DNA from: a virus
Lineage: Duplodnaviria > Heunggongvirae > Uroviricota > Caudoviricetes
Reading direction: 5' to 3' (one strand)
IMG/VR virus record: IMGVR_UViG_3300029305_011610
Coordinates: 77,395-122,929 of that record
DNA length: 45,535 nt
Position numbers and translations under genes: made by a program. Shown here piece after piece: positions 6,771-45,209 of the stretch. A model generated the notes under the pieces. That model saw nothing but the letters and a program-made list of their open reading frames with translations. It did no database searches and had not been told where the DNA came from. Position 1 is the stretch's first letter; the number at the start of each line of letters is the position of its first letter.

Positions 6771-6782
6771 ATAACAAACGAC

Positions 6783-6814: not shown

Positions 6815-6823
6815 AGTTAGGAG

Positions 6824-20268: not shown

Positions 20269-23200
20269 CAATGTACCTCAGAGCCGCTAAGACAGAGGCA
20301 ATTGAGGCTGGAGAGTCGGTCGAAGGTATGGCTGATAGCACTTCCGAGCTTAGAGAAGAAATTTTGGCTTTAACCGGTAATCGTGTTGATCTGATGGCCG
20401 ATGATAAAAATTTTAAAAGTACATATCAAATTTTAAAAGAACTCTCAGAAGTTTGGGATAGCTTAACTGACGTATCTCAAGCGAACATTCTGGAAATGAT
20501 AGGAGGCAAACGCAACGCAAATATTGTATCTGCCTTGCTCGAGAACTTTTCTCTTGCAGAAGAAGTCCTCAAAACTTCGATGAGTTCCTCTGGTTCTGCA
20601 ATAGCAGAAAACGAAAAATACCTTGAGTCAATTCAAGGTCATATATCTCAGTTCAAAGCGGCATTTCAGGCTCTGTCAGAGACTGCAATCAATAGTGATT
20701 TAGTCAAAGATATTATTGATATCGGAACCGCTTTTTTAGAGGCTGCAAACTCAGTGGTTAAATTTGTGGATGAAACAGTAGGTTTAGAAACCGCAATAAA
20801 GTCAATTCTGGGTTTAAAGGCGGCAAATCTATTAGGTGGATTATTTGATAAGACTCTAATTTTATCTGACAAGCAGCAAGAAAAATTCAGCAAGTTTGGT
20901 GAAGCAGTTCAAGGCGGTATAAATGGAATCTATAGTATTTTTGTCGAAGCAACAGATAACGGCGTAAATTTCTTCGATGTACTGATTTCCAAAGTTGGCA
21001 AGACGAAAATGGCACTCTTAGGCCTCGTCGCCGTTGCCGCAACGGTTTCTGCTCTATTTGGTGCTTATCTAAAACTTGAAGAGCAACTTGATACTAACTT
21101 CCATAGCGATCATGGAAAGTTTGAAGATGAGTCTAAATCTATAAAGAAATATAAATCAGAAATTTCTGACTTAAAGAAAACACTTGAGGATAATAGCTCT
21201 TCGACAGAAGATCGTGCGGACGCAGAAGAACGCTTGCTAGAAATACAAGACGATCTGATCTCCACATATGGAGAAGACGCAAAAGGATTAAACCTCTTAA
21301 AGTTAAGCTCTGATGAAGCCGCCGAGGCGCTTGATAATTTAATAAAAAAACGTGCCGAGTTTTATTTATCCGAAAACAAATATGTAGCGAAAAAATATGA
21401 AAGAGGCATTGAAGGACAAAGGACTTTTTCCGCAAGCGCATATTCGTTTGGTATAGATAAAGATTTCGTAAGTGAAATGCAAAGCATTGCAGAAGCTCAC
21501 GGGATATCTTTCTCAAAGAATCTTGGCGGAGAAATTGAGTTCTCATTTAAAGGAGATCCAGCGGAAGCCGCAGAAAAATTAAAAGCATTCCGTAAAGAGG
21601 TTCATGAGCTAGAAAACGAGTGGTTTCTAGACGATAAAGACGCAAACGCAGACGTATTGTTAAAAAGCATAGATGGAGCTGTAGCTCAAGCCGAAAGATA
21701 TACAACAGAATTTGGAGATGGGTATAAGGAGCTCAAAGATTTCTGGGCGGCGATCACAGGCGACGACGGGGCTTCTGGAGATCAAGAAAGCTCCCTCATA
21801 GAGGCTTCTAGAACTTTTGACAGCTACGTTGACTCTCTGTCAGCGTTTAAGACAGAGCAATCAGCTCTTACAAATGCATTAAAGGAGCAGGGCGGCGCAG
21901 GAACTCTTACGCTGGAAACTTATAAAGCTTTAGTTGCTGAAACCGAAGATTATGCTACTTGTCTTGAGTACGAGAACGGTGTAATGCGTATAAATGCTGA
22001 TGCAGCAAATGCTATGCTAGAAGCTAAAATGCTGACCGAGGCGTTAGATATAGAAGGGCAAATCATAAAGGAATCAGCACAGTATGAAGCGAACGCAAAA
22101 GAGATAGCAAAACTTAATGCTAGATATAAATCTTTGTCGGATGATGAAAAGAGTCAGTTAGAAACTCTTAAGAATAGCCAAGTAGAAATACAAAAGACTA
22201 TTCAACAATATAGCTTGCTACGCGCTGAGTTACTAAACATGAATAGCGCATATTCTAAATGGAAAGCCGCTCAAGACGCACCAGAGACTGGTGATATGTA
22301 CGACGAAATGAAGACCGCTGCGAGTCAAATTAATGATGCTTTAAAAACTGGTAAAACCGGTACTCTAAAATATCAGACTGCTGTCAAAATGCTTGTCACT
22401 TTGGAAGACCCTAGCCCTAAGCAAGTTCAGGATTACATGAAGAAGCTGAATCGCTATATTACTGACGATAGTTCTGGTGCAAAAAACTTTATAAATGACA
22501 TGATAAACAAGGGTCTCATGGAGTCCTCTACAGGCGGACGAGCCACATGGAATGACGCGTGGCTTAAGGACGCAAGCATGACGATAGATGAGATTTGTAA
22601 TATCATGGAAATCACACCAACTATGGCAAAGGCTATTTTCGGTGAACTCGAAGAATATCACTTTGACTTTAGTTGGGATGAAGACGATTTTAATAATGTA
22701 ATTCTTGAAGAACAGCTACGAAAAATTCAAGAAGAAGTTGAAAGATATAAGAAAGCTATTGCAGATAATCCTAAGATTGCGCCAGAAATAGATTCCACTA
22801 CATTAGATGATTATGTTGCAAGAGTAACGGAGGCAACTAATAAACTCAAAAAGCTAAATGATAAAGGTGCAAGCAGCTATGACATCACTCCTATTAAAGA
22901 AGAGATTGAAGCTTTATTAAGCGAAGGGCTTGAGCTCGGAATAGATCTGGAAAGCATTGGCTTCACAGAAGAGTTCCTATCAGGCCTTGGGTTAGATATT
23001 CAAACAGCAGACGTTCAAGCTCAACTAACAGCTGTCGCTGGGGATTTGGACAATATTGCCGCTAAAATCACAGCAGTTGCTGCAATGGCAATCGGTGATC
23101 TTGGTGCTGCCGCAGCAAGTAATATGCTATATGTTGTTTATAGTAGACTTCAGGACATTCAAAATTTCTCTATAGACGACAAGACATTTAATGTAACAGC

Positions 23201-25229
23201 TTTAGTAAATAATGGTTCTGGCAGCTCATCAAGCGATGGAGGTTCTTCTAATTCAGCTTCTGCGAGAGGTACACTTAATGCTCGTGGCGGTAGAACCTTG
23301 GTCGGAGAGCTTGGCAGAGAAATAGTGGTAAGCGGGAATCGATACTATACTGTTGGCGATAAAGGTGCTGAGTTTGTCAACCTTAAAAAGGGAGACATTG
23401 TGTTTAACCATATCGACACTGAACGCATCCTTGGTATGTCAAGCAAAACTCATCAAGGGCAAGCTTTTGCTGGAGGCACATTTGGCAAAGGTTCAATAGC
23501 TGACCAATTAGATGCTGCAAAAGAATATGCAGAAGCCCACGGTTTACCGACTATTGTCAACATTGAAGTAAAGCCTGCTGGTGATAATAATTCTGCTGCC
23601 GCAATACAGAATTCGTCTAAAGATGAAGACCAAGCGTATAAGCGAGAGTCTGGTTATGGCTCTCTAGGCGTCATACCGCCTCCTCTCCCTACTCCTCATA
23701 ATCAAAAATCAGAAGGAGGCGCAACGGATTTAACCGGAAATGGTGCCGGCGCTCCAGGGTCTGAACAAGCAAAGAAAAACTTCGAAGAAGCATATAAAGA
23801 GCATCAACACTTCCTATCGATGGATCAAGAAGAAACAGCAGAGTATCTCGACTGGTTAGAGAGTGCTTACAAAGATGCCTTCGAAGAAGGTTCCGAAGAG
23901 TACTGGAAATATGAAGAAGAAGTCTACAAAGGCCGTCAAGACCTATTTAAAGATATGCTTGGAGACAAAGAACATTTCATTTCCATGCTTGTTGCTGATG
24001 AAAAAGATGCATCTACTATTATAAACAATTACCAGTTGATTATAGAGGCCGTAGAAGCGGAATTGGAAAAAGCTTATGAGTCAGGTCTTGATGACAACGA
24101 CGACTACGTTCAAGAACTAAAAGACAAGCTTGTTGACTACAAAGATGAAATCAAATCTATAAACGATGAGATTACAGAGGATGCAAAAGAATCCTACGAA
24201 GATCTGATTGAGTATCGTATGGATATGCTCAAGCAAGAACTTGAGGATGAGAAAGAAAAACTCAATGAGCGTGTCAACACACTGCAAGATTTCTATAGTA
24301 AGCAAAAAGACATGTTAAAAGATGTCTACGATGAAGAAAAGTATCTTGAAGACCAAACAGAGAAGCAGAAAGCTGTTTCTGATATCAGGGCAGAGCTTGC
24401 AATGCTTGAAAACGATGATTCTGTTAGCGCACAACGCCGCAAGCTTGAATTGCAAGAAGAGCTGAAAGAAGCAGAAAAGGAACTTGCCGATTTCGAAAAA
24501 GAGCATGCTCTCGAGATGACACAAGACATGTTAGATAAGCAGCTTGAAATGCAAGAGAACAATCTAAACGCAGAGATTGATAACATTGACGAGCAACTTG
24601 AAAACGAAAAAGCTATACGAGATCAAGCAATTAAAGATCTGCAAAATGGGGATTTGGCGCTATTTAACGCCATGCTTGAGTATAACGCGTTCCATGGCGA
24701 CGGTAACGATCAAACAGTAGTTGATCTTTGGACAGATGCTTATGAGGCATTGAGTAAGTATTACGCACTTTACAATAAGCTGTATGAAGGCATGTACTTG
24801 GAAAACGTTACCGATGCAAAAGGTTTACTACCTGTTCCGGTTGGTATCGGATATGCAAGCGGCACATACAGCGCGACACCAGGTATTCATGAAATTGAGG
24901 AGATGGGCGCTGAGTATATCTTCGAATCTTCTAACGGTAGAAAATATCGTATGTTTAGAGGCGATGAGAAGGTACTTAATGCTACTGCGACAGACTTCTT
25001 ATATAAGTTTGCTAATAGCGGTGGTAAAATTCTGGAGGGCATGGTTTCTGGAGCAAGATCTCCGATCCCGTCTAATGTAGTCTCAAACAATCATATTTTT
25101 GAAATCAAAACAGGTGACATTATCGTTCAAGGTAATGCAAGTGAACGAACTGTCTCTGAAATTCGCAGAGCGCAAAGAGAAAGCGTAGACTTCATGCTAA
25201 AAGAGTTTGGACGTCTACAAAGCAGATAA
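20269..25229 (+). CDS. Tape measure exon 3; spliced CDS 6216 nt = 2071 aa
   Basis: MYLRAAKTEA...STYQILKELSEVW...GGKRNAN, long coiled coils, C-terminal GYASGT...PG...E.G.E motif. Exon sum 1236+19+4961 = 6216, in frame. Confidence 0.9.
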
Positions 25230-25260: not shown

Positions 25261-25292
25261 TACTAATTTATGAAAGCGAGGTGAGATGTTAT

Positions 25293-26129
25293 ATGAATCT
25301 CTCAGGATGTCATTTTGAATATTGCGGTGTATCTTCCAGAAAATACAATCTGGTCTTTGCTCATGCTAATACATCTGAATTCAAGCAAATCGTTGGAAAT
25401 ATTACTTCTAACTTCGTCTTCAACAAAAAGAACAAGCAGAAGCACTTCATAGGTGAGAGTTATGAGGACTCCCCTATTCAGTTTGATGCAGAAATCGTGA
25501 GATGGGGTTGTAATAACGAAGTAATCCATACACAAGAAAGAAGAGAGATTGAAAAGTGGCTATTCCACAAATCAGGATATAACAAGCTTTACGTCGACTT
25601 AGCAGATGACACTTTTGCCGAAACAGTAGAACTGGTCGACGGCTATCAAAAACGTCTCTATTTGAATTGTAGGTTTATTAACCCGGAAAAGATCGAAGAT
25701 GGCACTGGACTTCGAGGTTATAAATTTACTGTTGAATGTGATAGCTGTATGGCTTGGCAAGATGTGGTAATCTCTGAACACTCTCTCGCTAACACATCAG
25801 CAAATTCGACATCAATTATTTCCGTTAATGTTGATACCGACATTCGCGATTACACATATCCGAAAGTAATTATAACCATTGGTAACGCAGGTGGAGATAT
25901 ATTAATCGCAAATCATTCAGACAATGATAATCGAAATACATCTTTTGTGTCTACATATGCGAATAGCGAGATTATTATGGACGGAAATACTAATTATATA
26001 TCAGGTCAAAACTTTGACCGCTTTAAAGATAGAAACTTTATCCGGTTACTTGATGGAGAAAATAGACTTTCGGTAACAGGAAATATTTCAAAGATTAGAT
26101 TTGAATGGAATAACAGGAGGTATCTGTAA
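25293..26129 (+). CDS. Distal tail (Dit)-like protein
   Basis: First gene after the tape measure; ends with FIRLLDGENRLSVTGN..IRFEW, typical of Dit. The start could instead be 25281. Confidence 0.75.
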   Translation: MNLSGCHFEYCGVSSRKYNLVFAHANTSEFKQIVGNITSNFVFNKKNKQKHFIGESYEDSPIQFDAEIVRWGCNNEVIHTQERREIEKWLFHKSGYNKLYVDLADDTFAETVELVDGYQKRLYLNCRFINPEKIEDGTGLRGYKFTVECDSCMAWQDVVISEHSLANTSANSTSIISVNVDTDIRDYTYPKVIITIGNAGGDILIANHSDNDNRNTSFVSTYANSEIIMDGNTNYISGQNFDRFKDRNFIRLLDGENRLSVTGNISKIRFEWNNRRYL

Positions 26130-28645
26130 TGATAGTCAAATTTGACTCATTAGATCGCTTCGAAGTTCCTCAATTTACTGTATGTAGTCCGGGTAGCACT
26201 TACAGCAATTGTATGCCATCAAGAGTTGTAGGTATCTTAACAAACACTGATTCGGAAGAGTTGGTATTAAATTTCAATGCAACGTCAGAACTTAATTTTC
26301 GGGCAAACAGAGTTGATAGTGATGATGCAGAAGTAAATGCATACCTACATACGGTGTATAAATCACTCCAAAACAAACGAATGATTTTTGTGGACGACAT
26401 CGGCTATTTTATTATCACCAGTGTCAAAGACGGCTTTGATGGAAAGTCTCACTATAAAGACATTTCTGCAGAGTCATGTGAAGCTGAAATTAGAAACAAA
26501 CAACTCTCATTCGTAAAAGACGGTAAGATAACATTTATTGAAGATGGTACGTATAAGTTCTCTGAATTGCTCAATGGGCTCGTCCTCACACTGCCTCTCT
26601 GGACAGTTGGCGAGATTGATTCTTCGGTAGCAGACAGGTATAGAACGTTTGAAGATGTTAGCGAAAACCTAAACACATTGGCTTTCATGCTTGAGAATAT
26701 GCAAGACGCCTATGAATGTATATTCGTGTTTGATTGTATTAATCGGAAGATAAACGTCTATGACCAGAATAACTACGTTAAATTAACTGACATACAGATT
26801 TCAAAAGATGATGTCATTAAGAGCCTGGTTATCACAGAAAATTCCGATGAGCTATATACCGCTCTTAGCGTTACAAGCGAAGAAAGCGTCGGGATACAAG
26901 CTGTTAACCCAATGGGTACAGGTGTAATTTACAACTTCAAATACTATCTTGACTGGATGAGTGATGAATTACGTGCTCGTGTCAAGGATTGGATGGATCT
27001 TATTGATGGTTCGGAGCAAGGATATTACGATCTGAATCTTGATTATTACAATAAGAAGACTGCGCAAGATAGTAAGGTGGCAGAATATGACAAACTGGAA
27101 ATTCAGATCAATATGTATGATCGTTGTAGAGACAATATAGTAGCAAGCGGGAATACATCAGAAGTTGGTAATTACAATAAAGCTCTCGCAGAAAAGTGCA
27201 TAATTTGTTCCGGCGAGGGTAAGATTGGCGTTGAAGATTGTATCGCTTGCGAAGATGGCTACATATATGACGATAGCATTAAGATCGATATATCTGAAGA
27301 TGTTGACAAGACTCTCGCATCTATCGACTTGCTTATTTCTAAAGCGAACGCCGACAGATTATCATTAAACTCAGAAATCCAAAGTCTCGATTCTGAATTA
27401 TCTGAGTTAAGAGAAATGATCAATGCCGTAAACAACGCATGCCAAATAGACAAATTCTTTACAGAATCAGAATATAGCGAATTATCAAATTACATATATG
27501 AAGGCAATTACAATGATGAATATGTCATCGTAACTGAGAGCATGACATATAAAGAGCGATTCGAACAGATGAAGACATTGTATGATCGTGCTAAGAGTCA
27601 ACTTCTCAGGGTCTCCTTCCCTACTCAAGAATTTGATTTAGATGTAGAGAACTTTATATTTGAGAAGAACTTCGAGCCTTGGAGTGAACAATTAGAAACC
27701 GGTGTGTTAATAAATGTCGAGTTAAGCGATGATGATATAGCTGCTCTTTTTCTATCAAACATCACTGTTAACTACGACGACAAGAAACTAACTATGAAAT
27801 TTGGAAATCGTTTTAATAAATACGACCCCAAAGCACTGTTTGAAAAAATTTTAGGTAGCATCCAGAAGTCTTCTAACTCTATAAACTTCATTAAAGACAT
27901 CCTCTACCCTATTAAAAATGGCGAGTACGATGCATTTAAGGAGTTTGTGCAAACTTCGAGAACTCTCACAAAGAATGCTGTACTGGCATCTACAAACCAA
28001 AGTGTTGTTATTGATGATACCGGCTACACTGGGCGTAAGATAGATGAAGAAACAGGAGAAATAGATGATTGTCAAATAAAAATTAACAACAATACTATTG
28101 TCTTTACTAAAGACGCTTGGAAGTCATGTAGTACAGCTCTCGGCAAGTTAATCCTACCAGATGAAACCACAACATATGGAATTAACGCAGAGACAATTAT
28201 CGGAGAGGCAATACTCGGAAATACACTCCAGATTTATGATGGCAATAAAACACCTATCTTGCAGGTTATGGATAATAAGATAATAACAAACCTCAAAGAT
28301 GTTAATGGAAGCATCTCTACACTACAGCAGACAGCGGAAGACCTAAGTTTAAAGTTCGAAAGCGGAATTAACTCAGTTACAACTACATCCGGGTATACAT
28401 TTGATAGCACTGGATTGACTATTTACAATAGCGGTAGCAATATCGAAAATAAATTAGATAATACAGGTATGTATATATCAAAAAAGAACGGTGCTGACGA
28501 TGAAATTGTATTGTCCGCAAATGATGAAGGTGTAAAAGCGATAGACATAACTGTAAAAAATTACTTAGTTATAGGAAATCATGCACGATTTGAGGATTAT
28601 GTAACAGCTGATGGTGAGGAGAAAACAGCTGCGTTTTGGGTGTAA
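26129..28645 (+). CDS. Tail hub/tail-associated (Tal-like) protein
   Basis: 838 aa directly after Dit, with coiled-coil and beta-rich regions; internal CxxCxGxG Zn-finger at 27197-27259. Confidence 0.7.
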   Translation: MIVKFDSLDRFEVPQFTVCSPGSTYSNCMPSRVVGILTNTDSEELVLNFNATSELNFRANRVDSDDAEVNAYLHTVYKSLQNKRMIFVDDIGYFIITSVKDGFDGKSHYKDISAESCEAEIRNKQLSFVKDGKITFIEDGTYKFSELLNGLVLTLPLWTVGEIDSSVADRYRTFEDVSENLNTLAFMLENMQDAYECIFVFDCINRKINVYDQNNYVKLTDIQISKDDVIKSLVITENSDELYTALSVTSEESVGIQAVNPMGTGVIYNFKYYLDWMSDELRARVKDWMDLIDGSEQGYYDLNLDYYNKKTAQDSKVAEYDKLEIQINMYDRCRDNIVASGNTSEVGNYNKALAEKCIICSGEGKIGVEDCIACEDGYIYDDSIKIDISEDVDKTLASIDLLISKANADRLSLNSEIQSLDSELSELREMINAVNNACQIDKFFTESEYSELSNYIYEGNYNDEYVIVTESMTYKERFEQMKTLYDRAKSQLLRVSFPTQEFDLDVENFIFEKNFEPWSEQLETGVLINVELSDDDIAALFLSNITVNYDDKKLTMKFGNRFNKYDPKALFEKILGSIQKSSNSINFIKDILYPIKNGEYDAFKEFVQTSRTLTKNAVLASTNQSVVIDDTGYTGRKIDEETGEIDDCQIKINNNTIVFTKDAWKSCSTALGKLILPDETTTYGINAETIIGEAILGNTLQIYDGNKTPILQVMDNKIITNLKDVNGSISTLQQTAEDLSLKFESGINSVTTTSGYTFDSTGLTIYNSGSNIENKLDNTGMYISKKNGADDEIVLSANDEGVKAIDITVKNYLVIGNHARFEDYVTADGEEKTAAFWV

Positions 28646-28656
28646 AGAGGTGAAAT

Positions 28657-30291
28657 ATGGTAATTAAGAAAAATGGCAATGTGCTTCTAACATTTGATAT
28701 CACAGATGAGATAAAGGCTTATGCGAGTTTTTGGTGGACAGCCTCTTATCTTGACACTGGCGACACATCAAATATTTCTATAGATAAAATTTACTTTAAT
28801 CACTACGGAAAATCTGGCAATTATTTGATAGATGCAGATATGTATGTTGATGATTTTTTGTTTGGATCATTTAAAAATGGCACAGCAGTCATTAGTACGC
28901 CAAAGGAAAAGACCGAGGTTATCACAGATACATTTCCAGCTACACCGTTCAACTCTCATGCAATAGAACACAATGGAATCGATAACAAGACTGTTGTTTT
29001 AAAAATAGACTGTGTGATGCATGATATAAGCGAGTCAATTGATATATCTTCTACTTATTCCATGGAGATCAATATGTCTGATTATTCACAAATTGCATTT
29101 GTGGACCCAGTTCAGCTTTATATCGATCAGACTTATTCTCTCGTTTTGAACCAATACTCCCCTAAATATGATTATGTTATCCAGTACGATTTTGGTGAAT
29201 TGAGCGGGTACATAAATTCTCGTGGCTATAGCTCTAATATAGAAGAAAAGCTATCCGGCCAAACACATACATTTAGAGTACCTACATCATTTTATAGTCA
29301 AATACCAAATTACAAGAATGGCATCGTTACCATAATCGTCTACACATATTCTGGAGAAACGCTGTTGGGTTTTTCTGGAGTACCCCTCATTGTTAGTGTG
29401 TGGCCAGCGATTTGCGCACCCTCGTTTTCCGCAACAGTTGTGGACACAAACGAAAGCACGCTCGCTGTTACCGGAGATTCAAGTAAATTTATTAAATTCT
29501 GCTCTTCTGCCCATGTATATGTGGATGCGACTTCGAAGTACGATTCGACAATATCATCAATCACGGTTAACGGAATCGTAGCCCAGAACGGGATTGTAGA
29601 TATCGCTAAAGTTAATTCCAACGTTATTCAAGTTTCTGTAGTAGATTCGCGTGGTGTTTCTACATCTGAAGATATTTATATAGATATGATACCATATGTC
29701 ATGCTCACCACCGACCTGTCTGCCAAACGAGACGATCCTACGTCTGGTAACGTTACACTGACAATAAAGGGTAACTTTAACAGCGGGAAATTCGTTGATG
29801 GACAAGACGGATCTGCAGAGAATGAACTAGTCCTTACATTCTCTGTTATTGACGAAGATGGAATTGCGACTCAGCCAGAGAGCTTATCTTGTTCCGTGAC
29901 AGATGACACGTATGTTTCGATGGCGAAAATTAACGGCCTTGATTATGAACATACTTACATTATAGAGGTAGTCGCAAAGGATAAGATAAATACTGTAATC
30001 GCACGAGCAACTATAAAACCTGGTGTTCCTGTATTTGAATGGGGTAAAAATGATTTTACAGTAAACAAAAGATTAAACGCAAAAGGCACGTTAGAAATAA
30101 GCTCCTTGAATTCTTTTATTGTCGGCGAGACCCCATTTAATACCCTTCTTTTAGACTTAGTCTACCCAGTTGGCTCAATGTATATGGCGGATGCAGAAGT
30201 AGTGCCTAGCGATTCTATCGGTGGAACATGGGTATTAGTTATGGAGGACACGGATAATACAGGAGCATATGTTTGGAGACGTACTGGGTAA
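28657..30291 (+). CDS. Minor tail/baseplate protein
   Basis: 544 aa, beta-rich, with C-terminal PVFEWGK and LDLVYPVGSMYM...GGTW motifs common in phage tail proteins. Confidence 0.65.
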   Translation: MVIKKNGNVLLTFDITDEIKAYASFWWTASYLDTGDTSNISIDKIYFNHYGKSGNYLIDADMYVDDFLFGSFKNGTAVISTPKEKTEVITDTFPATPFNSHAIEHNGIDNKTVVLKIDCVMHDISESIDISSTYSMEINMSDYSQIAFVDPVQLYIDQTYSLVLNQYSPKYDYVIQYDFGELSGYINSRGYSSNIEEKLSGQTHTFRVPTSFYSQIPNYKNGIVTIIVYTYSGETLLGFSGVPLIVSVWPAICAPSFSATVVDTNESTLAVTGDSSKFIKFCSSAHVYVDATSKYDSTISSITVNGIVAQNGIVDIAKVNSNVIQVSVVDSRGVSTSEDIYIDMIPYVMLTTDLSAKRDDPTSGNVTLTIKGNFNSGKFVDGQDGSAENELVLTFSVIDEDGIATQPESLSCSVTDDTYVSMAKINGLDYEHTYIIEVVAKDKINTVIARATIKPGVPVFEWGKNDFTVNKRLNAKGTLEISSLNSFIVGETPFNTLLLDLVYPVGSMYMADAEVVPSDSIGGTWVLVMEDTDNTGAYVWRRTG

Positions 30292-31012: not shown

Positions 31013-32383
31013 ATGTTCTCAAGTACTGACGGAAAAACTATCCTTTATGGCTTTACAAATCAAACAATGCCAGTATATAAGCGGAGTGATGACGAGTTAG
31101 TTAGTGGAGCTTTTTATATTGCAGATGGTAATGGCAGTGCTCTGGGGGTCATGGCAGTTGTCATAACCGACGATGTTGTTGCCTATTTTAACACCACTGA
31201 AGAACTATCGTCACTTTGTACGTATGATTTTTGCGGTACGACAGCCCCGCCAAATACGACCGTCTATATTTCCAAAGGATTTGAAGCAGGTAGTATTGAT
31301 GCGCTGCTTTCCAATATTGTGGCGCAAGGCAAATCAGGTGATAATGGGGAATTTATAATCTCAAGCGTGCCTGGCTTTGATGACATAGCGTCTATATGGA
31401 TTCGCGTACCAGCTGAATATGCTCAGACCGGCAGTATTGTATGTTCTGTAGAGGCAAATTTAATTGACGTAGAACAAAATAACAACATCTTAGCCTATCA
31501 ATATATCGAAACGCAACAAGGGCCGATGACGTGCCCGACCTGCGGTGGTGCCGGGGCTATTGGTGAGGCTCAGTGCACAGTCTGTAAAGGAAGTAAATCA
31601 ATTCGAGATCCGCGCTACACGATTTCAGGCAGATGCAGCAAAGACATAATGTCTGTATATGTTAGTTCAATAGACAGTCAAAGCTTACTATCATATACAA
31701 ACGAAACGGTTAATACACTTTCATCCAATTTATTCGGCTCATGTGAATCAAGTAACGGAGAGTACGAGTTAAGTTTTATGCCCAAAGGCGGTGAGCTGTT
31801 TATTGTATGGGGCGTATCTGAAAGCAGCAATTATCTAACGATTGATAGATCCAGTATATCAGAGGGTTATGTAGAATGCTTATCTGCAGATACTTTAATT
31901 ACTATGGCAGATGGCAGTAAACGTCGCATTGATAAGCTACATATTGGAGATTTTGTTATGGATAAAGATGGTTGCCCAACTCCGGTGTATTCCATTTCAC
32001 GTGGTCGTTTTAGTCCATACTATACTATCTATACGTTCGAGGATGGTACGACCGTAAACGTGGTAAAAAGACATCGTTTTTTTAATGCAGATCAAGGCTT
32101 TTATCAATATATCGATAAATGGGGAGTTGGTGAACATGCTGTAAAGCAAAACGGCGAAAAAGTTGCTCTCGTATCAGAGGAACGCGTATACAAGGAAACA
32201 GAAAGGTTCGGCCTTTGGACAAAAAATGGCAGTTATTTTGCAAATGAAATCTTGTCTGGTATGGCATTTTGCAACAAAAAACTACTTGAAAATGCAACAG
32301 CCGAGCAAGCTGTTAATATGATGATGTCTATTGCAGAAAGTCAATTATTGCAGTTAATAGGGATAAAGGGGGTTTTGCCGTGA
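31013..32383 (+). CDS. Beta-rich protein with a DnaJ-like Zn finger and a C-terminal Hint (Hedgehog/intein) domain
   Basis: Block A CLSADTLITMADGSKRRIDKLHIGDFV at 31877, block B VVKRHRFF, block G-like SYFANEILSG without His-Asn, then a 40-aa tail. CPTCGGAGAIGEAQCTVCKG at 31532-31594. Confidence 0.8.
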   Translation: MFSSTDGKTILYGFTNQTMPVYKRSDDELVSGAFYIADGNGSALGVMAVVITDDVVAYFNTTEELSSLCTYDFCGTTAPPNTTVYISKGFEAGSIDALLSNIVAQGKSGDNGEFIISSVPGFDDIASIWIRVPAEYAQTGSIVCSVEANLIDVEQNNNILAYQYIETQQGPMTCPTCGGAGAIGEAQCTVCKGSKSIRDPRYTISGRCSKDIMSVYVSSIDSQSLLSYTNETVNTLSSNLFGSCESSNGEYELSFMPKGGELFIVWGVSESSNYLTIDRSSISEGYVECLSADTLITMADGSKRRIDKLHIGDFVMDKDGCPTPVYSISRGRFSPYYTIYTFEDGTTVNVVKRHRFFNADQGFYQYIDKWGVGEHAVKQNGEKVALVSEERVYKETERFGLWTKNGSYFANEILSGMAFCNKKLLENATAEQAVNMMMSIAESQLLQLIGIKGVLP

Positions 32384-33531
32384 AAAAATTAGTTCTTATA
32401 GCCGAAGAGAGTATTTTTTCAGGAGTTGTTAAATGCGGCATGGCAGAACTGGTTGACAGTTTAGCCAACTCTCTTGGTCAAAATTATGAGGTTACAGTAG
32501 TTTGTCCAGATGGCGATGGTGTGCTTGCGAAAACTGTTAGCGATATTAGAACAATTGAATACGGGGTTAAGTCGTGCAGGTTTTCTTGCGTTGACTATTA
32601 TATGATTAAGCCTAATATGTGGCCAGATAAAGCAATTGACGTCGTTAACAGGCTTAAGCCAGATATTTTTCATAACATGTCAGAGCCATGGTTAATAAAT
32701 ATGCTGAGCTCACGCCCACCAAAGGCTATCTATACTTTTGACTACGCTGAATTTGTAGATGGCAAAGAAGATTCGCTTGCTTATTATGATGCTATCACAG
32801 TTAATTCGAAAAGCTATGCAGGAAATATGATGAAAATGCGTAGCTCTTTAAGCTCTGCGCTGTCGTCAATGAATTTTAAAGGAATAACAAGCGGTATTCT
32901 TAATACTGTATTTGACCCTAAAAAAGGGCTTTTGCTTCCAATGAAGTACAGCCCTGATGATCAAAGCGGCAAACAAATATGTAAGCAACGACTTTTACAA
33001 ACGTATGGTATCTCCGGAAACCCATATATTTGTTTGTTAATGTGCAGACTAGTAGAGGAAAAAGGCATAGACGACGTTCTTAATGTAGTGGAAGATATCA
33101 AGAACAGTGGTGGTGTATTGTTGGTTGTCGGCAAGGGTGATGCAAAGTATGAAAAACGCTTTAAGGAATTCAAACGTTCCGATGGAGTAGTATATTTAGA
33201 TAAGTGGGCGTCACACCTACAGATTGCACCGCTTACATCTGGGGCAGACTTTTTCTTACAGCCAAGTATTTATGAGGCTTGTGGTTTAATGCCAATGACG
33301 GCAAGTTGTTATGGAGCAATCCCAATTGTTACTTTGAATGGTGGCTTAGCAGATAATTTTAATGAAGAGAACGCCATTATTGTCGATAATGGGTTGACAG
33401 AAGCTATTCATAAAGCAGCTTCGTTGTATATGGACAGTGATGCTTTAATACAAAAACGTAAGATTTGTATGGAGCAAGATTTTTCTTGGAATACAAGAAA
33501 GGCAGAATATATCGAACTATATGAAGAATAA
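32380..33531 (+). CDS. GT-B glycosyltransferase, glycogen synthase (GlgA)-like
   Basis: N-terminal KLVLIAEE...KCGMAELVDSL (cf. KTGGLADV) and C-terminal GADFFLQPSIYEACGL..M.A..YGAIPIV...GGLAD (cf. FEPCGL). At 383 aa it is shorter than typical GlgA. Confidence 0.85.
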   Translation: MKKLVLIAEESIFSGVVKCGMAELVDSLANSLGQNYEVTVVCPDGDGVLAKTVSDIRTIEYGVKSCRFSCVDYYMIKPNMWPDKAIDVVNRLKPDIFHNMSEPWLINMLSSRPPKAIYTFDYAEFVDGKEDSLAYYDAITVNSKSYAGNMMKMRSSLSSALSSMNFKGITSGILNTVFDPKKGLLLPMKYSPDDQSGKQICKQRLLQTYGISGNPYICLLMCRLVEEKGIDDVLNVVEDIKNSGGVLLVVGKGDAKYEKRFKEFKRSDGVVYLDKWASHLQIAPLTSGADFFLQPSIYEACGLMPMTASCYGAIPIVTLNGGLADNFNEENAIIVDNGLTEAIHKAASLYMDSDALIQKRKICMEQDFSWNTRKAEYIELYEE

Positions 33532-34192
33532 AGAAGTCGGAAGATTAAGGCATTTAGCCATCATCGCAGATGGGAATCGGCGTTGGGCAAACGCTAACGG
33601 GCTCCCTATTAACATGGGATATATTCAAGGTTTAACTGTGATTGAAAACTGTTGCCATTGGGCAATTCAGAACGATATCCCTTATCTTACAGTATATTGT
33701 TTTTCCACTGAAAATTGGAAGCGTCCTAAAAATGAGGTCAGTTTACTAATGGATTTGGCTCGTTGGTACTTTGAAGATAGGCGTGAATGGTATATTACAG
33801 CCGGCATCAAAGTTCGATTCTTAGGACGGAGAGATAGATTTGATAAAGATTTTATAGATAAACTTGAAAAAATGGAAAAAGCGACAAACGAAGGTACGAA
33901 AGTGACACTGACTATTTGTGTGGACTACGGCGGCAGAGACGAGATTGCGAGGGCTGTCGCTTCCGGAGCTAAGACAGAAGATGATATCTCCGCTATTCTA
34001 TCGGGTGAAGTGCCAGACCCAGATATTATATTGCGCACTGGAGGAGAGCAAAGGTTATCCAATTTCTTATTATGGCAATCTGCATATGCCGAACTGTTTT
34101 TTTCGTCCGTTTTATTTCCTGCCTTAGAATATAAGGACTTAGATGCATTACTGTGTGAGTATGCATGTAGAAAACGCAATTATGGTTGTTAG
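33521..34192 (+). CDS. uppS: cis-Prenyltransferase (undecaprenyl diphosphate synthase family)
   Basis: HLAIIADGNRRWA, YCFSTENWKRP, DYGGRDEI and DPDIILRTGGEQRLSNFLLWQSAYAELFF; all hallmark motifs are present. Confidence 0.92.
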   Translation: MKNKEVGRLRHLAIIADGNRRWANANGLPINMGYIQGLTVIENCCHWAIQNDIPYLTVYCFSTENWKRPKNEVSLLMDLARWYFEDRREWYITAGIKVRFLGRRDRFDKDFIDKLEKMEKATNEGTKVTLTICVDYGGRDEIARAVASGAKTEDDISAILSGEVPDPDIILRTGGEQRLSNFLLWQSAYAELFFSSVLFPALEYKDLDALLCEYACRKRNYGC

Positions 34193-36272: not shown

Positions 36273-37979
36273 ATGCTTAATTATAAATCAAGGCATGTCT
36301 TCGGCCCCGAAGCTAATGTTGATGGCGCATTGTTGAGCGGTGACATTGATTTCTTTGATATACTATTTTTAGACGAAGGTAAAATAGGATGGATTACAGA
36401 AACTGGGGAAAAATTTATTATTGAAGATAAGGTTCAAGTACGAGTAGAAGATGAATTGCCGAACGAAGGCGTAGAAAATGTTCTGTTTGTATGCGGTAAG
36501 AGTTTATATGTCTGGGATGGGTCAGAGTACGTACTCATTGTTGATGATTACATGTCACTCGAAGACCGAGTAAGCAAACTCGAAGATGCATCTGGCCAGA
36601 TTGACTCCCATAACACGTCTGATAAAGCTCATGCTGATATCAGAAGCATTGTGTCCGACAACGCAAATGAGATAGCTCAGATAAAAAATGGTGCTGAGCT
36701 TGAAACTTTTGCAGATGTAGAATCAATTTTAATGGAATTAGCATATGGCATTTCAGGCGGTTCAGAATTAGAGACTGAAACTAACTTTATAGTTCCAGCC
36801 ATAAACGAAGTTCATTTTGAGTTAGATGAACTAAAAGAGGCACTTCAGGAGTTAATTATTATCGATTATACCAAACTTGAATTTGATGTTACCGAGCTTG
36901 TATCTTTAGCTCATATTTATGGCGTTTCCTGGGATAGAACAGATACTCCAGTTCTTACAAGAATAGATGAAGCAGCCTCATTCCCCTCCCCTGTCGTCGC
37001 CGTCGATACATCTGTGGGTAGCAGTCCGTTTGATAATTTAATGCCATGGGCAGGAATGGAAAAGATAACAGATGAAAATGGGCAAAGTCTGGTATCTATT
37101 CCTAAGTTCTGGTATAGATGGACCTCTACTGAAGATGCTCTAACTCTGCAAATTGCAGACGCCCCCGTCAATGGATTCCACGTATCTCCAATGCATGCAG
37201 ATCGTGGCGATGGGAAAGGAGAGCGTGATGTGGCTTACATCGGAAGATATCATTGCGCTGTAGAAGGAGCGTTAATGGGTAGTATCACAAATGCGTTACC
37301 ACTAACAGATGTACCAAGAACCGGAGCCCGCTATGGGATTACCAGCGCTGCTGGGGACGGCGGCTATTTCTTACAAGACTTTGCTGCATGGTGGACGATA
37401 CGAATGCTGTTCTTGGTTGAATATGCCACTTGGGATGGACAGGCTGTAATTGGAGAAGGCAATATTAGCGGTAGTATTGTTAAAAACGGAGCCACCGATA
37501 ATATGATCTATCATACAGGCATGGTTACCGTGGCAAATGGAGATGCAGGCAATCAGTATAGATGGATTGAGAATCCATGGTCAAATGTGGGCGAATGGAT
37601 CGATGGTATCACATTTGATGGTGCTGACATTTATATTTTCAATAATCCTGAGCAAATGTCAGATGATGTTACGGCAGAAGGTGCTGTCAAGCTCAGCTAT
37701 CAGAGAAGCACAGATGTTATGGGTTGGATACAAGATTTTGGGATTCCCGATAATGAAGGATTGGAATATGCCCTATATCCCACAAAATTAGCAGAAGTTA
37801 CGGACATGACTCCTAAGTATATTGGTGATGCCTGCATCGGTTCCTCTGGTGGTGTTGTTCTGGTTTCGGGTGGTGTCTATGCCTCTAATCCGTTCTATGG
37901 TCCGTTCATGTGCATCGGTGGCTATGGGGCTTCTGGGTCGTTCCCGGATGTTGGTGCTCGTCTCCAAAAACTCCCCTAA
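36273..37979 (+). CDS. DGR target protein, putative receptor-binding protein with a C-terminal CLec/FGE-like variable domain
   Basis: IYGVSW...LTRID, VSIPKFWY, YIGRYH, RMLFLVEYATWDGQAVIG, WIENPWSNVGEWIDG, ending GARLQKLP*; the VR occupies the last codons. Confidence 0.85.
   Translation: MLNYKSRHVFGPEANVDGALLSGDIDFFDILFLDEGKIGWITETGEKFIIEDKVQVRVEDELPNEGVENVLFVCGKSLYVWDGSEYVLIVDDYMSLEDRVSKLEDASGQIDSHNTSDKAHADIRSIVSDNANEIAQIKNGAELETFADVESILMELAYGISGGSELETETNFIVPAINEVHFELDELKEALQELIIIDYTKLEFDVTELVSLAHIYGVSWDRTDTPVLTRIDEAASFPSPVVAVDTSVGSSPFDNLMPWAGMEKITDENGQSLVSIPKFWYRWTSTEDALTLQIADAPVNGFHVSPMHADRGDGKGERDVAYIGRYHCAVEGALMGSITNALPLTDVPRTGARYGITSAAGDGGYFLQDFAAWWTIRMLFLVEYATWDGQAVIGEGNISGSIVKNGATDNMIYHTGMVTVANGDAGNQYRWIENPWSNVGEWIDGITFDGADIYIFNNPEQMSDDVTAEGAVKLSYQRSTDVMGWIQDFGIPDNEGLEYALYPTKLAEVTDMTPKYIGDACIGSSGGVVLVSGGVYASNPFYGPFMCIGGYGASGSFPDVGARLQKLP
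37830..37965 (+). repeat. DGR variable repeat (VR)
   Basis: 136-nt gapless match to the TR; 15 mismatches, every one opposite a TR adenine. Confidence 0.97.
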
Positions 37980-38006
37980 GGGGGTCTAAGGGGGTCGCAA
38001 CCCCCT
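37973..38006 (+). other. GC-rich hairpins downstream of the VR (candidate DGR target-recognition element)
   Basis: CCCC-TAA-GGGG (37973-37983) and AGGGGGT-CGCA-ACCCCCT (37989-38006), placed like the hairpin downstream of the IMH in characterised DGRs. Confidence 0.7.
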
Positions 38007-38060
38007 AAAATAAAATAACAATTTGGGACTGTATGTGTTCTGCGCCGACATCTGGTTTCT

Positions 38061-38196
38061 GCCTGCATCGATACCTCTGGTGGTGTTGTTCTGATTTCGG
38101 GTGGTAACTATGACTCTAATCCGAACTATGGTCCGTTCATGTGCAACGGTAACTATGGGGCTTCTGAGTCGAACCCGAATGTTGGTGCTCGTCTCC
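38061..38196 (+). repeat. DGR template repeat (TR)
   Basis: Five AAC codons; 24 adenines, none at third codon positions; diverges from the VR after CGTCTCC (IMH/IMH* junction). Confidence 0.97.
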
Positions 38197-38321
38197 TTAT
38201 ATAAGGCTTAGCCGTCTACTATACACATACTTTCCCGCACCTCTTGGTGAAAATAAGCTGTTAGGACACGGTCTAGTAGGATCCCCGAAAAACCGTGAAG
38301 CGAAATAAGGACGGTATTTTT

Positions 38322-39374
38322 ATGAAAAGAGTAGGAAATTTATGGCCTACATTAGTTAGTGATGAAAATTTAAAGGTAGCCATCTTTGAGGTTAATCGAA
38401 CGCATAGAAAGTACAGAATTGTCGACTGGGTAGAAAGAACTGTTGACGACCGTGTAGTTGAATTGCGAAACATCCTTGAGGAAGGTTTCTCTCCTGCTCC
38501 ATCACGTCACCTTGTTATATATGATAAATCTGCAAATAAAACAAGAAATATCCATAGTCCTCGTCTATGGCCGGATCAGTACATTCATCATGCACTAATT
38601 CAAGTATTAGAACCAATTATGATGCGTGGTATGGATCACTGGTGTTGCGGCTCTATCAAAGGTCGAGGTATTTCTTATGGTGTAAGAGGAATAAAGAAAT
38701 GGATGAAAAATGACAAAAAAGGCACAAAATATTGTGCCGAAATTGATATACATCATTTTTATGAAAGCCTCTCTCCTAATGTTGTCCAGGAAAGAATGGG
38801 GCATTTGATAAAGGACAAAAAGATCTTAGATCTGATTAAGCGCACAACCAGAGATGGCATTCTAATCGGCAGCTACTGTAGTCAGTGGTTTGCCAACACA
38901 GTCCTTCAGCCGTTAGATCATATTATACGACAGGAACTGGGAGTCTCTCATTATGTAAGATATATGGATAATTTTTTGTTGTTTTCTAACAGAAAACGTA
39001 CTCTGCATAAGGCGATAAAAAGAATACAACAGTGGTTGAGCCAACATGGCCTTAGGCTAAAAAGCAATTGGCAGGTTTTTCCTACGTCAAAGCGGCTTCC
39101 TTCCGCACTCGGCTATCGTTACGGTAGAGGGTACGTTCTTCCCAAAAAGAAGAATCTGCTTCGGTTTAGGAGGGCTTGCAGACGGGCTTATAAGCGATTA
39201 GTATCTGGTAAACAAATACATTATCGAATGGCTGCAGGAATACTAAGTCGTATTGGGAGCTTAAAACATTGCAAATGCTTCCGTGCAATAGCGGCACATT
39301 TATCGCAAGTACCGATGTGGTTACTTAAAAATATAGTTCGTCAGAACAGTATAAAGAAGAAGGTGATAATTTGA
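38322..39374 (+). CDS. DGR reverse transcriptase
   Basis: MKRVGNLW, RLWPDQYIHHAL, EIDIHHFYES, GILIGSYCSQWFAN, YVRYMDNF, LGYR; immediately downstream of the TR. ATG 38322 is preferred over GTG 38295. Confidence 0.95.
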   Translation: MKRVGNLWPTLVSDENLKVAIFEVNRTHRKYRIVDWVERTVDDRVVELRNILEEGFSPAPSRHLVIYDKSANKTRNIHSPRLWPDQYIHHALIQVLEPIMMRGMDHWCCGSIKGRGISYGVRGIKKWMKNDKKGTKYCAEIDIHHFYESLSPNVVQERMGHLIKDKKILDLIKRTTRDGILIGSYCSQWFANTVLQPLDHIIRQELGVSHYVRYMDNFLLFSNRKRTLHKAIKRIQQWLSQHGLRLKSNWQVFPTSKRLPSALGYRYGRGYVLPKKKNLLRFRRACRRAYKRLVSGKQIHYRMAAGILSRIGSLKHCKCFRAIAAHLSQVPMWLLKNIVRQNSIKKKVII

Positions 39375-42201: not shown

Positions 42202-43023
42202 ATGAAAAGAGAAGATAACACAGAATATATTTTAAACTTGAGCTACGGCAAAGACAGCCTTGCTTGCCTAGGGGCAATTAAAGAACTAGGTTGGCCTCTT
42301 GACCGTATTGTTCACGTGGAGGTATGGGCTACGGACACCATTCCAGCCGACCTTCCGCCTATGGTCGAGTTTAAAAAGAAGGCAGATGCGATCATAAAAG
42401 AGCGGTTTGGTATCGAAGTTGAACATGTATGTGCTATGCGTACAATCGTCACCAAGAGAGAGAGAGTAAGCTTCGAAGGAGAATTTTATAAGAGTTATTT
42501 TAGCAAAAAGATTAATGATGACCGGATAACTGGATTCCCAATAATACGAGGATCATGGTGTACTAGAGCACTGAAAACTAACGTTCTGAATCATATCAAA
42601 CCCCATTTTGGCGACAATGTAGTTACCTATATTGGAATTGCAGCTGATGAGTCAGAACGAGTATTAAGACATAGCGTTACAGGGAAAGCACTTCCGCTTG
42701 TAGCTATTGGCTGGGATGAAGCATACTGTCGTAAATGGTGTGAGGAAAACGACCTACTTTCCCCTATTTATACCGATTGTCAGCGTGGTGGTTGTTGGTT
42801 TTGTCATAATCAAAGTGTTGATCAGCTCAGAAAGCTTAGAAAGAACTATCCTGAATATTGGGCTATTCTCATGAAGTGGGATTTAGATAGCCCTGTAACA
42901 TTTAAACCCGGCGGTATTACTGTCCACGACTTCGATAAGAGGTTTGCGGCAGAAGAAGCCGGATTTTTTAATGGCAAAAAACGATTTCTGTGGAAGTCTT
43001 TAGACAATTTTCAATATCCATAA
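42202..43023 (+). CDS. PAPS reductase-like (adenine nucleotide alpha-hydrolase) protein
   Basis: PP-loop LSYGKDS, RGSWCTRALK, YIGIAADESER and RGGCWFC. Confidence 0.8.
   Translation: MKREDNTEYILNLSYGKDSLACLGAIKELGWPLDRIVHVEVWATDTIPADLPPMVEFKKKADAIIKERFGIEVEHVCAMRTIVTKRERVSFEGEFYKSYFSKKINDDRITGFPIIRGSWCTRALKTNVLNHIKPHFGDNVVTYIGIAADESERVLRHSVTGKALPLVAIGWDEAYCRKWCEENDLLSPIYTDCQRGGCWFCHNQSVDQLRKLRKNYPEYWAILMKWDLDSPVTFKPGGITVHDFDKRFAAEEAGFFNGKKRFLWKSLDNFQYP
42455..42466 (+). repeat. (AG)6 simple sequence repeat inside the PAPS reductase-like gene
   Basis: ACCA-AGAGAGAGAGAG-TAAG, encoding KRERV. Confidence 0.8.
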
Positions 43024-43075: not shown

Positions 43076-43975
43076 ATGTCTGTAAAAACATATGCTAAAG
43101 CTAACTCCGTAGAACTATCGGAGAATTTTTCTTCCCATGAGTTCAACTGTCACGGCGACGGTTGTTGCTCTCAAACGCTAATTGATCCCAATCTAGCTCT
43201 TATCCTACAGAAGATTCGCACTCATTTTGGAGTTAAAGTCATAATCACAAGTGGATATAGATGCCCAACTCATAATAGATCAATTGGCAGTGGTACTTCT
43301 TCTTATCACGCAAAAGGAATGGCTGCAGATATCACTGTAGAGGGCGTTGCGCCGAGAGAAGTAGCCAAATATGCTGAAAGCATTGGCGTCCTCGGTATTG
43401 GCCTGTACGAAACAAGCGCTGACGGTTATTTTGTACATATCGACACACGAACAAGAAAGTATTTCTGGTACGGGCAGTCACAAGCTTACCGTTCTACCTT
43501 TGGCGGTACACCTGTTGCAGTAACTCCTCCCACAGAATCACAAACCCCTGCTACCCAGATTCTAATGCTTCGTGGCAGTAAGGGTATTCAGGTCAAAGCA
43601 ATGCAGGAGAAGCTAATTGCTCTCGGTTACGACTTAGGCGTACATGGTGCTGACGGTGATTTTGGTCAAATGACCGATATTGCAGTGCGTAGCTTCCAAG
43701 CTGCAAATGGTCTTGTAGAAGATGGAAAAGCCGGGCAAAAGACTTTGGATGCTCTTGATAATGCGTATGAAAAAGCCGATAAGACTATTGTTAACAATGG
43801 TTTTAAGGTAAAGATTCTTGCAAGTGTATTGTATGTACGATCCGGTGCAGGAATGAACTATCCCATTATTGGGAAAGTTAAGAGGAATTCTGTTCAGACT
43901 ATCCTCGAAGAAAAGGATGGGTGGGGCAGAATCGCAAACGGATGGATCAGCTCTTCCTATTACCAGAAATTATAA
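43076..43975 (+). CDS. Endolysin: peptidase M15 + PG-binding + SH3b domains
   Basis: SGYRCPTHN, SYHAKGMAAD, FVHIDTR (M15); LALGY..G..GADGDFG..T..AVR.FQ (PG_binding_1); LYVRSGAG...GWGRI (SH3). Confidence 0.9.
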   Translation: MSVKTYAKANSVELSENFSSHEFNCHGDGCCSQTLIDPNLALILQKIRTHFGVKVIITSGYRCPTHNRSIGSGTSSYHAKGMAADITVEGVAPREVAKYAESIGVLGIGLYETSADGYFVHIDTRTRKYFWYGQSQAYRSTFGGTPVAVTPPTESQTPATQILMLRGSKGIQVKAMQEKLIALGYDLGVHGADGDFGQMTDIAVRSFQAANGLVEDGKAGQKTLDALDNAYEKADKTIVNNGFKVKILASVLYVRSGAGMNYPIIGKVKRNSVQTILEEKDGWGRIANGWISSSYYQKL

Positions 43976-44918: not shown

Positions 44919-45209
44919 ATGATTGATTTAACTCAGGTTGTTGTCGCTCTTATCGGCTTATTGAGCGTGGTTATTTCTACTGTGCTTGTTCCATATCTGA
45001 GACAGAAAAATACTGCAGAGCAGATGGCGCAGATTGAATTCTGGGTGTCTGTAGCTGTTCAGGCGGCTGAAATGATTTATGTTGGTACTGGTCGCGGCGA
45101 AGAAAAGAAGGCTTATGTTGTCGAGTTCCTGAACAGCAAGGGCTTTACTATTGACATGGCAAGCATCGATGCAATGATTGAAGCAGCAGTGCTTGCACTA
45201 AAGAAATAA
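44919..45209 (+). CDS. Holin, LL-H-like family
   Basis: One TM segment, then WVSVAVQAAEMIY..GRGEEKKAYV...IDAMIEAAV. Confidence 0.8.
   Translation: MIDLTQVVVALIGLLSVVISTVLVPYLRQKNTAEQMAQIEFWVSVAVQAAEMIYVGTGRGEEKKAYVVEFLNSKGFTIDMASIDAMIEAAVLALKK

Follow-up and report, generated by a model that had tools for sequence, protein, structure and literature searches.

Why does a phage tail module carry a Hint domain, a glycosyltransferase and a cis-prenyltransferase? A conserved gene cassette and its possible role in protein lipidation

The nucleophiles known from Hint-domain chemistry are water, a C-extein, cholesterol and the lysine of another protein. What, then, is a Hint domain doing in the tail module of a bacteriophage, coupled to a glycosyltransferase (GT) and a cis-prenyltransferase (cis-PT), and do these two enzymes supply it with a nucleophile of another kind? 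The question is raised by a stretch of 45,535 nucleotides (the window), the final 45.5 kb of a 122.9-kb IMG/VR record (IMGVR_UViG_3300029305_011610) classed as a provirus, where three overlapping genes on the + strand, at 31013-34192, encode these proteins. As far as can be judged from sequence, the three genes form a single functional unit of late genes, conserved in phages of gut Clostridia. More tentatively, at a little short of an even chance, the unit would serve a Hedgehog-like reaction, in which the N-terminal fragment of the Hint precursor (the cargo) is transferred from a thioester at Cys289 to a polyprenyl (glyco)lipid, the C-terminal tail of the precursor acting in recognition of the adduct. 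The parts of the cassette are given below (aa, amino acids; AF2, AlphaFold2).

31013-31876, + strand: cargo (N-terminal fragment, residues 1-288) of the Hint precursor; from the AF2 model, Foldseek and family representatives
31877-32275, + strand: Hint domain (residues 289-421; Cys1 is C289); from Pfam Hom_end_hint, alignment and Foldseek
32276-32383, + strand: conserved 35-aa C-terminal tail (residues 422-456) and stop codon; from alignments
32380-33531, + strand: predicted GT-B retaining-type glycosyltransferase with a GlgA-like C-terminal half; from PF00534, TIGR02095 and PDB 1rzu
33521-34192, + strand: predicted UppS-family cis-prenyltransferase, 223 aa; from PF01255 and TIGR00055

The three open reading frames run from 31013 to 32383 (456 aa), 32380 to 33531 (383 aa, with a GTG start) and 33521 to 34192 (223 aa), and the overlaps described in a first-pass annotation of this DNA can be read directly in the sequence. 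The tetranucleotide GTGA at 32380-32383 holds both the stop of the Hint gene and the start of the GT gene, an overlap of 4 nt, with a ribosome-binding site (AAGGGGG) placed 8 nt 5' of the GTG, and the GT and cis-PT genes share 11 nt at 33521-33531. That the products are a Hint protein, a GlgA-like GT-B enzyme and an intact UppS-family enzyme, as the annotation had it, is borne out by Pfam and TIGR matches and by conserved catalytic residues. No transmembrane segment or obvious signal peptide is found in any of the three window proteins. A gtrABC serotype-conversion cassette, which comprises the GtrA flippase, a GT2 bactoprenol glucosyltransferase and the polytopic GtrC, had already been set aside by the annotation and is rejected here on the grounds that the trio holds no transmembrane protein and that its GT is a GT-B enzyme and not a GT2.

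Do these genes belong together or do they merely lie together? An exhaustive profile-free search with residues 289-456 as the query returned 1109 relatives. About 100 representatives (50%-identity clusters) match the Hint domain and the tail at E <=1e-30, always at the C-terminus, and a second group (E ~1e-24) matches the Hint part alone and ends ~5-10 residues later. Loci were drawn from viral contigs, prokaryote genomes and metagenome assemblies and scanned with the window proteins and with hidden Markov models (HMMs) built from relatives. The 25 tail-bearing loci represent ~14 lineages at <70% Hint identity and come from uncultivated phages and from prophages in metagenome-assembled genomes (MAGs) of Lachnospiraceae and Oscillospiraceae. 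A GlgA-like GT lies downstream of the Hint gene in 25/25, being the next gene in 21; in the remaining 4 (Oscillospiraceae) the gene of a DUF1385 membrane protein separates them. The 4-nt stop/start overlap is present in most of the 17 loci in which the Hint/GT junction was read. A cis-PT is present within 2.5 kb in 22/25, one further locus, L083, being cut by a contig end. Approached from the enzymes, the association is the same: loci reached in a reverse search from the GT (3) or the cis-PT (1) have a tail-bearing Hint protein directly 5' of the GT in 4/4 cases. Neither enzyme is found at ~95 loci that encode inteins or C-terminal Hint domains without the tail, where the GT HMM has no match even at E <1 in the viral set; nor does Pfam find other GT families 3' of tail-less Hint genes, the genes there encoding instead Mtd-type receptor-binding proteins, a portal, a fatty-acid desaturase and unknowns.

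Recurring as it does in 25 loci from ~14 lineages, the arrangement is far beyond chance. The annotation had proposed just such a survey of co-occurrence and gene order, and had named independent occurrence of the three genes in related phages as the outcome that would tell against it; the genes are instead co-inherited. The unit outlasts inversion of its lipid genes, the cis-PT being on the opposite strand in L007 (1416-6663) and L015 (5309-9538), two loci in which TAG is a sense codon (TAG-to-Gln) and in-frame TAGs occur in all three genes. It also survives replacement of its cargo, in that L015 has an unrelated ~560-aa cargo before the same Hint domain and tail. Further enzymes are optional: a trans-prenyltransferase like farnesyl diphosphate (FPP) synthase (2e-46) occurs in 11 loci and an FnlA/PseB-like UDP-GlcNAc 4,6-dehydratase (1e-100) in 4, and neither an FPP synthase nor a gene of the sugar epimerase/dehydratase type is found elsewhere in the 122.9-kb record. 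The DUF1385 membrane protein mentioned above (L082:6927-7757, also in L083-L085) has 276 aa and an HGAEH motif, and its gene has overlapping stop/start junctions with cassette genes; it could be a membrane partner, either a phosphatase or a presenter of the acceptor, that the window trio is without.

The three genes have also changed together. Over 13 loci the identity matrices of Hint plus tail, GT and cis-PT correlate at r 0.81-0.92 (Mantel p ~2e-4), which shows co-inheritance rather than independent events, since related loci share history. Comparison of the window with L002 gives dN/dS values of 0.16 (Hint), 0.06 (GT) and 0.085 (cis-PT), with dS saturated, and all three genes are under strong purifying selection. 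The GT falls into at least 120 90%-identity clusters among the matches listed, at 47-82% identity, and the phage clade of the cis-PT into more than 120 such clusters among the matches listed, at 59-82% identity to the window protein and nearly all of 215-216 aa. The hosts indicated are Lachnospiraceae and Oscillospiraceae, and the cassette is common in human and animal gut phages. Recent capture of a host gene was considered for the cis-PT and rejected: the window protein is only 41% identical to the single UppS-type gene of one Lachnospiraceae MAG, a candidate host, and the phage clade is large and old. Together with the purifying selection, this identity disposes of the possibility, raised in the annotation, that the enzymes are near-identical host copies.

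What kind of Hint domain lies at the head of this unit? The Pfam family Hom_end_hint matches residues 289-339 (E 2.6e-8, passing the Pfam cut-off), and the match begins exactly at Cys289, the codon of which starts at nt 31877, where the annotation had placed a Glu/Cys cleavage site. The precursor was aligned within its family (alignment A1) and more widely (A6, 96 representatives), and residues 350, 351 and 421 were compared in 23 tail-bearing members. The C-terminal half is strongly conserved and the N-terminal half variable, with C289, L290, F342 and H354 invariant in the 96 representatives. Block B reads His354-Arg-Phe, and the terminal HN of inteins is replaced by LLSG. The domain ends in LLSG-x4-N, followed by K, Q, R or M, with no HN and no +1 nucleophile; the Asn, N421, stands five residues after LLSG in ~96% of the 23 sampled tail-bearing members and in at least 90% of the 96 representatives, has no His before it and is shifted by four residues relative to the tail-less relatives (LLSGN). 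The annotation had held that a terminal Asn is missing, which is right for the His-Asn pair but overlooks N421. A cleavage like that of type A bacterial intein-like (BIL) domains may take place at this residue, releasing the tail. An intein was rejected on account of the missing HN, the missing +1 nucleophile and the terminal position of the domain, and no uninterrupted protein of cargo plus tail was seen among the search matches.

The AF2 model of the whole precursor (pLDDT 80.7) has N-terminal beta-sandwiches, a compact Hint domain (residues 289-416, pLDDT ~90) and three short helices. Foldseek matches the Hint domain at probability 1.0 to BIL2 (6y75), the gp41-1 intein, CthBIL (2lwy) and Hedgehog (1at0), with TM(target) of 0.75-0.89 to BIL domains and mini-inteins and somewhat lower values for Hedgehog HhC. 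As these are ranked together, fold alone cannot separate the classes, although the modelled fold is closest to that of the BIL domains. PF01079, the Hedgehog Hint module, scores 17.4 bits, below its cut-off of 29.7. The protein is thus to be classed, by its sequence features, as a member of the Hint superfamily that is neither an intein nor of the Hedgehog Hint family.

The Hint domain is always C-terminal and is followed solely by the co-varying 35-aa tail, which is rich in Met and predicted to form short helices, residues 419-448 being modelled at low confidence. This tail is conserved together with the Hint domain, is restricted to the cassette-linked subfamily and tracks with the GT and the cis-PT. 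On the other side of the scissile bond, the cargo is modelled as a tandem beta-sandwich (AF2 model ma6c8fddc8497, pLDDT 85.7), a generic fold with weak Foldseek matches (TM ~0.2) to glycan-binding proteins, adhesins and phage minor tail proteins. The cargo family is common to 79/96 family representatives, the remainder bearing different cargos. In the window it includes a CxxCxGxG...CxxCxG zinc ribbon at residues 169-195 (nt 31517-31597); among the Hint-family representatives the number of CxxCxGxG repeats ranges from 0 to 12, as an expandable insertion between the two beta-sandwich domains.

A sister subfamily without the tail (L016-L031 and L086-L088; for instance L020:7203-8696, L021:6507-8696 and L026:7491-8627) ends in LLSGN plus ~8-10 residues and belongs to large tail-module proteins of phages, where neither a GT nor a prenyltransferase lies close by. 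Several of its genes lie directly 5' of Mtd_N-type receptor-binding proteins, which resemble targets of diversity-generating retroelements (DGRs), and the subfamily seems to reflect self-processing as a general step for the fibre proteins of phages. One tail-less Hint phage protein of 1136 aa (L028:2434-6548) shares a stop/start overlap with a fatty-acid desaturase homologue (PF00487, 1.6e-16), another instance of a lipid enzyme adjoining a Hint protein.

What do the two enzymes bring to the unit? The GT matches Glycos_transf_1 (PF00534; E 5.5e-14, 52.5 bits against a cut-off of 26.4) and PDB 1rzu (E 2e-19). Its match to the glgA model TIGR02095 (E 1.3e-44, 152.7 bits against a cut-off of 328.45) covers residues 133-383 only. 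R223 and K228 are conserved in relatives, and E299 and G321-G322-L323 are invariant. It resembles GlgA (GT5; 1rzu, 2qzs) in this C-terminal nucleotide-sugar domain, with its R...K, E and GGL motifs, but differs in being ~90 aa shorter and in falling below every GlgA cut-off. The N-terminal (acceptor) domain is short and divergent, with no match to PF08323 (Glyco_transf_5 N-domain), and the lysine of the KTGGL motif (K18) varies among relatives. The nearest named clusters are glycogen synthases, from which the GT would appear to derive without being one itself, and it is best assigned to the retaining-type GT-B enzymes of the GT4/GT5 clan. Some relatives pair it with a UDP-GlcNAc dehydratase, and ADP-glucose is therefore probably not the donor.

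The cis-PT is a more orthodox enzyme. It passes the cut-offs of PF01255 (E 7e-67, 225.6 bits against 27) and TIGR00055 (204.9 bits against 109.55), and has the catalytic Asp in DGNxRW, the FSxENW motif, the RxxxxxRxS site for isopentenyl diphosphate (IPP) and the C-terminal RxG; D17, G18, N19, R20, W22, F61-S62-T63-E64-N65, R172, R178, S180, E191, R219 and G222 are invariant in its phage relatives. It thus shares the catalytic and substrate residues of bacterial UppS (H. pylori 2d2r, C. jejuni 3ugs and E. coli 1jp3). The H. pylori and C. jejuni enzymes are the best PDB matches and align without a gap over about the first 145 profile positions, a stretch that in our reading covers the helices determining chain length. 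The helix lengths of the chain-length region match those of medium-chain enzymes, and a medium- or long-chain polyprenyl diphosphate is the expected product. In contrast to bacterial UppS, the proteins of the phage clade have 215-223 aa, with an 11-12 residue surface deletion (after ~residue 150, the sole deletion relative to the two best matches), and the gene is embedded in a tail module and not in the host uppS-cdsA context. A predicted complex of the GT, a cis-PT dimer and Hint plus tail (289-456) scored 0.00, which is no verdict and counts neither way.

How might these parts work together? With an invariant Cys1 and a block-B His, established Hint chemistry would lead to an N-to-S acyl shift at Glu288-Cys289: Cys289 would attack the Glu288 carbonyl and hold the cargo as a thioester, to be resolved by a nucleophile. 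The cis-PT would make polyprenyl diphosphate at the cytoplasmic face of the membrane, host enzymes would dephosphorylate it and the GT-B enzyme would then add sugar to the polyprenyl product or a derivative of it. A hydroxyl or amine of the resulting polyprenyl (glyco)lipid would attack the thioester and so free the cargo, now bearing a lipid or glycolipid at its C-terminus in the way that Hedgehog acquires cholesterol; the conserved tail would take the role of the Hedgehog adduct-recognition region. The lipidated cargo could then act at the membrane, or as an accessory of the tail tip or fibre. As flippase and phosphoglycosyl transferase are both missing from the cassette, and signal peptides and transmembrane segments from the window trio, a lipid-linked product would stay in the cytoplasm, beside the Hint precursor. 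The optional FPP-synthase-like and dehydratase-like genes, supplying a lipid primer and a modified UDP-HexNAc respectively, would be in keeping with a pathway producing lipid and sugar of its own. Lipid transfer is favoured because the enzymes are tied to the sole Hint subfamily that bears an additional conserved tail, and because the gene content fits the use of a lipid on the spot. The fuller proposal, that the phage makes its own polyprenyl (glyco)lipid and that the Hint thioester links it, through an ester or amide, to the C-terminus of interchangeable tail-module cargos, is possible but doubtful.

There are precedents for a Hint domain giving up its N-terminal fragment to an outside nucleophile. 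The Hint domain of Hedgehog passes its N-terminal fragment to cholesterol (PMC7242414, PMC9163320), and the BIL2 domain of Tetrahymena BUBL passes its own to a lysine of another protein (PMC8616854). With Hedgehog/Hog proteins (1at0, 6tyy; PMC7242414, PMC9163320, PMC2362128) the phage precursor has in common the order of cargo, Hint domain and short helical C-terminal extension, the lack of splicing, Cys1 and the block-B His, a fold match (Foldseek probability 1.0, TM(target) 0.72-0.73) and, in the chemistry we infer here, a thioester resolved by a lipid nucleophile. It differs in that its extension has 35 aa, against ~70 aa in the Hedgehog sterol-recognition region (SRR), and bears no sequence likeness to it; in that the proposed lipid is a polyprenyl (glyco)lipid from dedicated neighbouring enzymes, whereas Hedgehog takes cholesterol from the cell pool without partner enzymes; and in its setting, the cytoplasm and a phage. 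The BIL domains (BIL2 of Tetrahymena BUBL1, 6y75 and 6tmm, PMC8616854; Clostridium thermocellum, 2lwy) include the best structural match (E 1.5e-9), likewise place a Hint domain outside conserved host proteins, and cleave or ligate the N-terminal fragment to an outside nucleophile; those of type A share with the phage domain a conserved Asn that stands close to where the domain ends and precedes a non-nucleophilic residue. Identity to the BIL domains is just 18-19%, however, the phage Asn lies five residues beyond the usual position with no preceding His, and BIL domains are without the conserved C-terminal tail and the linked glycosyltransferase and prenyltransferase.

Several observations weigh against lipid transfer. 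The adduct itself is pure inference from gene neighbourhood. Direct glycosylation of polyprenyl phosphate is known to us from GT-A enzymes only, and from none of the GT-B type, and the cytoplasmic assembly of a tail protein bearing a C55 lipid is hard to picture. At two loci, L081 and L121, the Hint protein and the GT are accompanied by no cis-PT within 5-6 kb, such that the lipid synthase is either dispensable or replaced there by a host copy. L081 (5890-8781) is a prophage in a Lachnospiraceae MAG; its Hint gene is split in two frames (5890-7077 and 6909-7694), its GT is intact, and the single UppS-type gene of the MAG, on another contig, is taken as the host's own. The locus may be a decaying cassette or an assembly error. 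Within the precursor, no counterpart of the sterol-activating Asp of Hedgehog was found in the A1 alignment, the conserved pair R330-G331 being at the equivalent position. The tail is short at 35 aa and only weakly amphipathic (hydrophobic moment muH <=0.27), with a net charge of 0, and the conservation of N421 means that it may simply be cleaved away. Finally, the window copy has Val at residue 350, whereas Glu is found there in ~96% of the 23 tail-bearing relatives sampled and is retained by the two relatives nearest to the window copy; Val also occupies position 351, where about half of the sampled relatives have the block-B Thr. This site (residues 350-352) is at nt 32060-32068.

Could the same genes serve the maturation and glycosylation of a tail protein? 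Here the Hint domain would remove itself, through hydrolysis of the thioester and possibly cleavage of the tail at Asn421, or would ligate the cargo to a lysine of a virion protein; the tail would recruit the GT, which would O-glycosylate the Ser/Thr-rich cargo before cleavage, and the cis-PT would support the supply of lipid-linked or nucleotide sugars or make up for the host pool of carrier lipid at a late stage of infection. There are known cases of protein glycosylation by cytoplasmic GT-B enzymes, as there are of virion glycosylation by phage enzymes. The Hint-GT pairing is the tightest link in the survey, at 25/25, while two loci are without a nearby cis-PT; Asn421 is conserved; and related tail-less Hint domains end phage tail-module proteins with no enzymes nearby, from which it follows that self-cleavage or ligation alone suffices as a function of the fold. 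The best structural match, moreover, is the lysine-ligating BIL2 (PMC8616854). What this account does not provide is a reason for a cis-PT, often with an FPP-synthase-like gene, to be co-inherited and to co-diverge with the pair across ~14 lineages, as protein glycosylation by a cytoplasmic GT-B enzyme needs no polyprenyl carrier. It seems to us rather unlikely in this form, and is nevertheless the main and a serious rival to lipid transfer.

A further account moves the substrate from the virion to the host envelope. The GT and the cis-PT would act on undecaprenyl-linked precursors of host wall polymers, in the manner of TarM, so as to block superinfection, shield progeny from debris or time lysis, while the Hint protein, not itself a substrate, would assist them structurally or in membrane targeting. 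TarM-type enzymes glycosylate teichoic acid in the cytoplasm, and wall-polymer glycosyltransferases encoded by prophages are known. It agrees with the cytoplasmic nature of the enzymes and the lack of export machinery, with the lysis genes that adjoin the cassette in several relatives, with the optional FnlA/PseB-like dehydratase, which belongs to surface-polysaccharide sugar pathways, and with the provirus class of the record. Yet the cassette lies within a late tail module on the structural strand rather than in a moron or lysogeny region. This account also leaves unexplained why the coupling to one tail-bearing Hint subfamily, stop/start overlap included, is so strict, and a polymer that already exists could be glycosylated with no obvious need of a further UppS. 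We regard envelope remodelling as quite improbable.

Were lipid transfer by the cassette to be true, its significance would be considerable. Covalent lipid transfer by a Hint domain is known solely for proteins of the Hedgehog family, which a recent paper describes as singular across life in this regard (PMC7242414), and the phage cassette would represent the first Hedgehog-type protein lipidation outside eukaryotes. As a lipid-tagging module it would be self-contained, working in a single turnover on substrate that it supplies itself and giving a bactoprenol-anchored protein on virions or on the membrane of the infected cell, and the union of a Hint thioester with dedicated lipid and sugar biosynthesis would be a new route of post-translational modification in viruses and bacteria. 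It would also provide a purpose for phage-encoded UppS genes and a compact tool for C-terminal lipidation or glyco-tagging. That the cassette is a categorically new protein-lipidation system is nonetheless unlikely, if far from negligible. Even under the rival of maturation and glycosylation it would be a widespread and undescribed module for the processing and modification of tail proteins in abundant gut phages, with a bearing on host recognition. The annotation had known of no phage system with this combination, and full-text literature searches aimed at such a cassette likewise found no description. Neither the Hint protein nor the cis-PT is covered by a PHROGs family. When the deposited phages were searched at the DNA and protein levels, no relative of the Hint protein came up, and the cis-PT drew distant matches only (<=41%), many of them evidently host DNA within phage records.

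The wider setting is that of a siphovirus tail module, on one strand throughout, in which the cassette sits between the baseplate genes and a DGR-diversified fibre gene. The placement of the trio among tail genes in the annotation is upheld by its tape measure, Dit, minor tail, DUF859 and DGR-target neighbours, which are listed here in order with the genes that follow.

20271-25229: tape measure
25281-26129: Dit
26129-28645: minor tail protein
28657-30291: DUF859 tail protein, followed by a 232-aa unknown and then the cassette
between the cassette and the DGR-target tail protein: three unknown genes
36273-37979: DGR-target tail protein, phrog_5302
38295-39374: reverse transcriptase, phrog_1423 (3e-74)
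42202-43023: PAPS-reductase-like protein, phrog_424 (1.4e-32), between an 895-aa unknown and the endolysin
43076-43975: endolysin
44919-45209: holin

The tail protein and the reverse transcriptase at 36273-39374, three genes 3' of the cassette, are consistent with a DGR.

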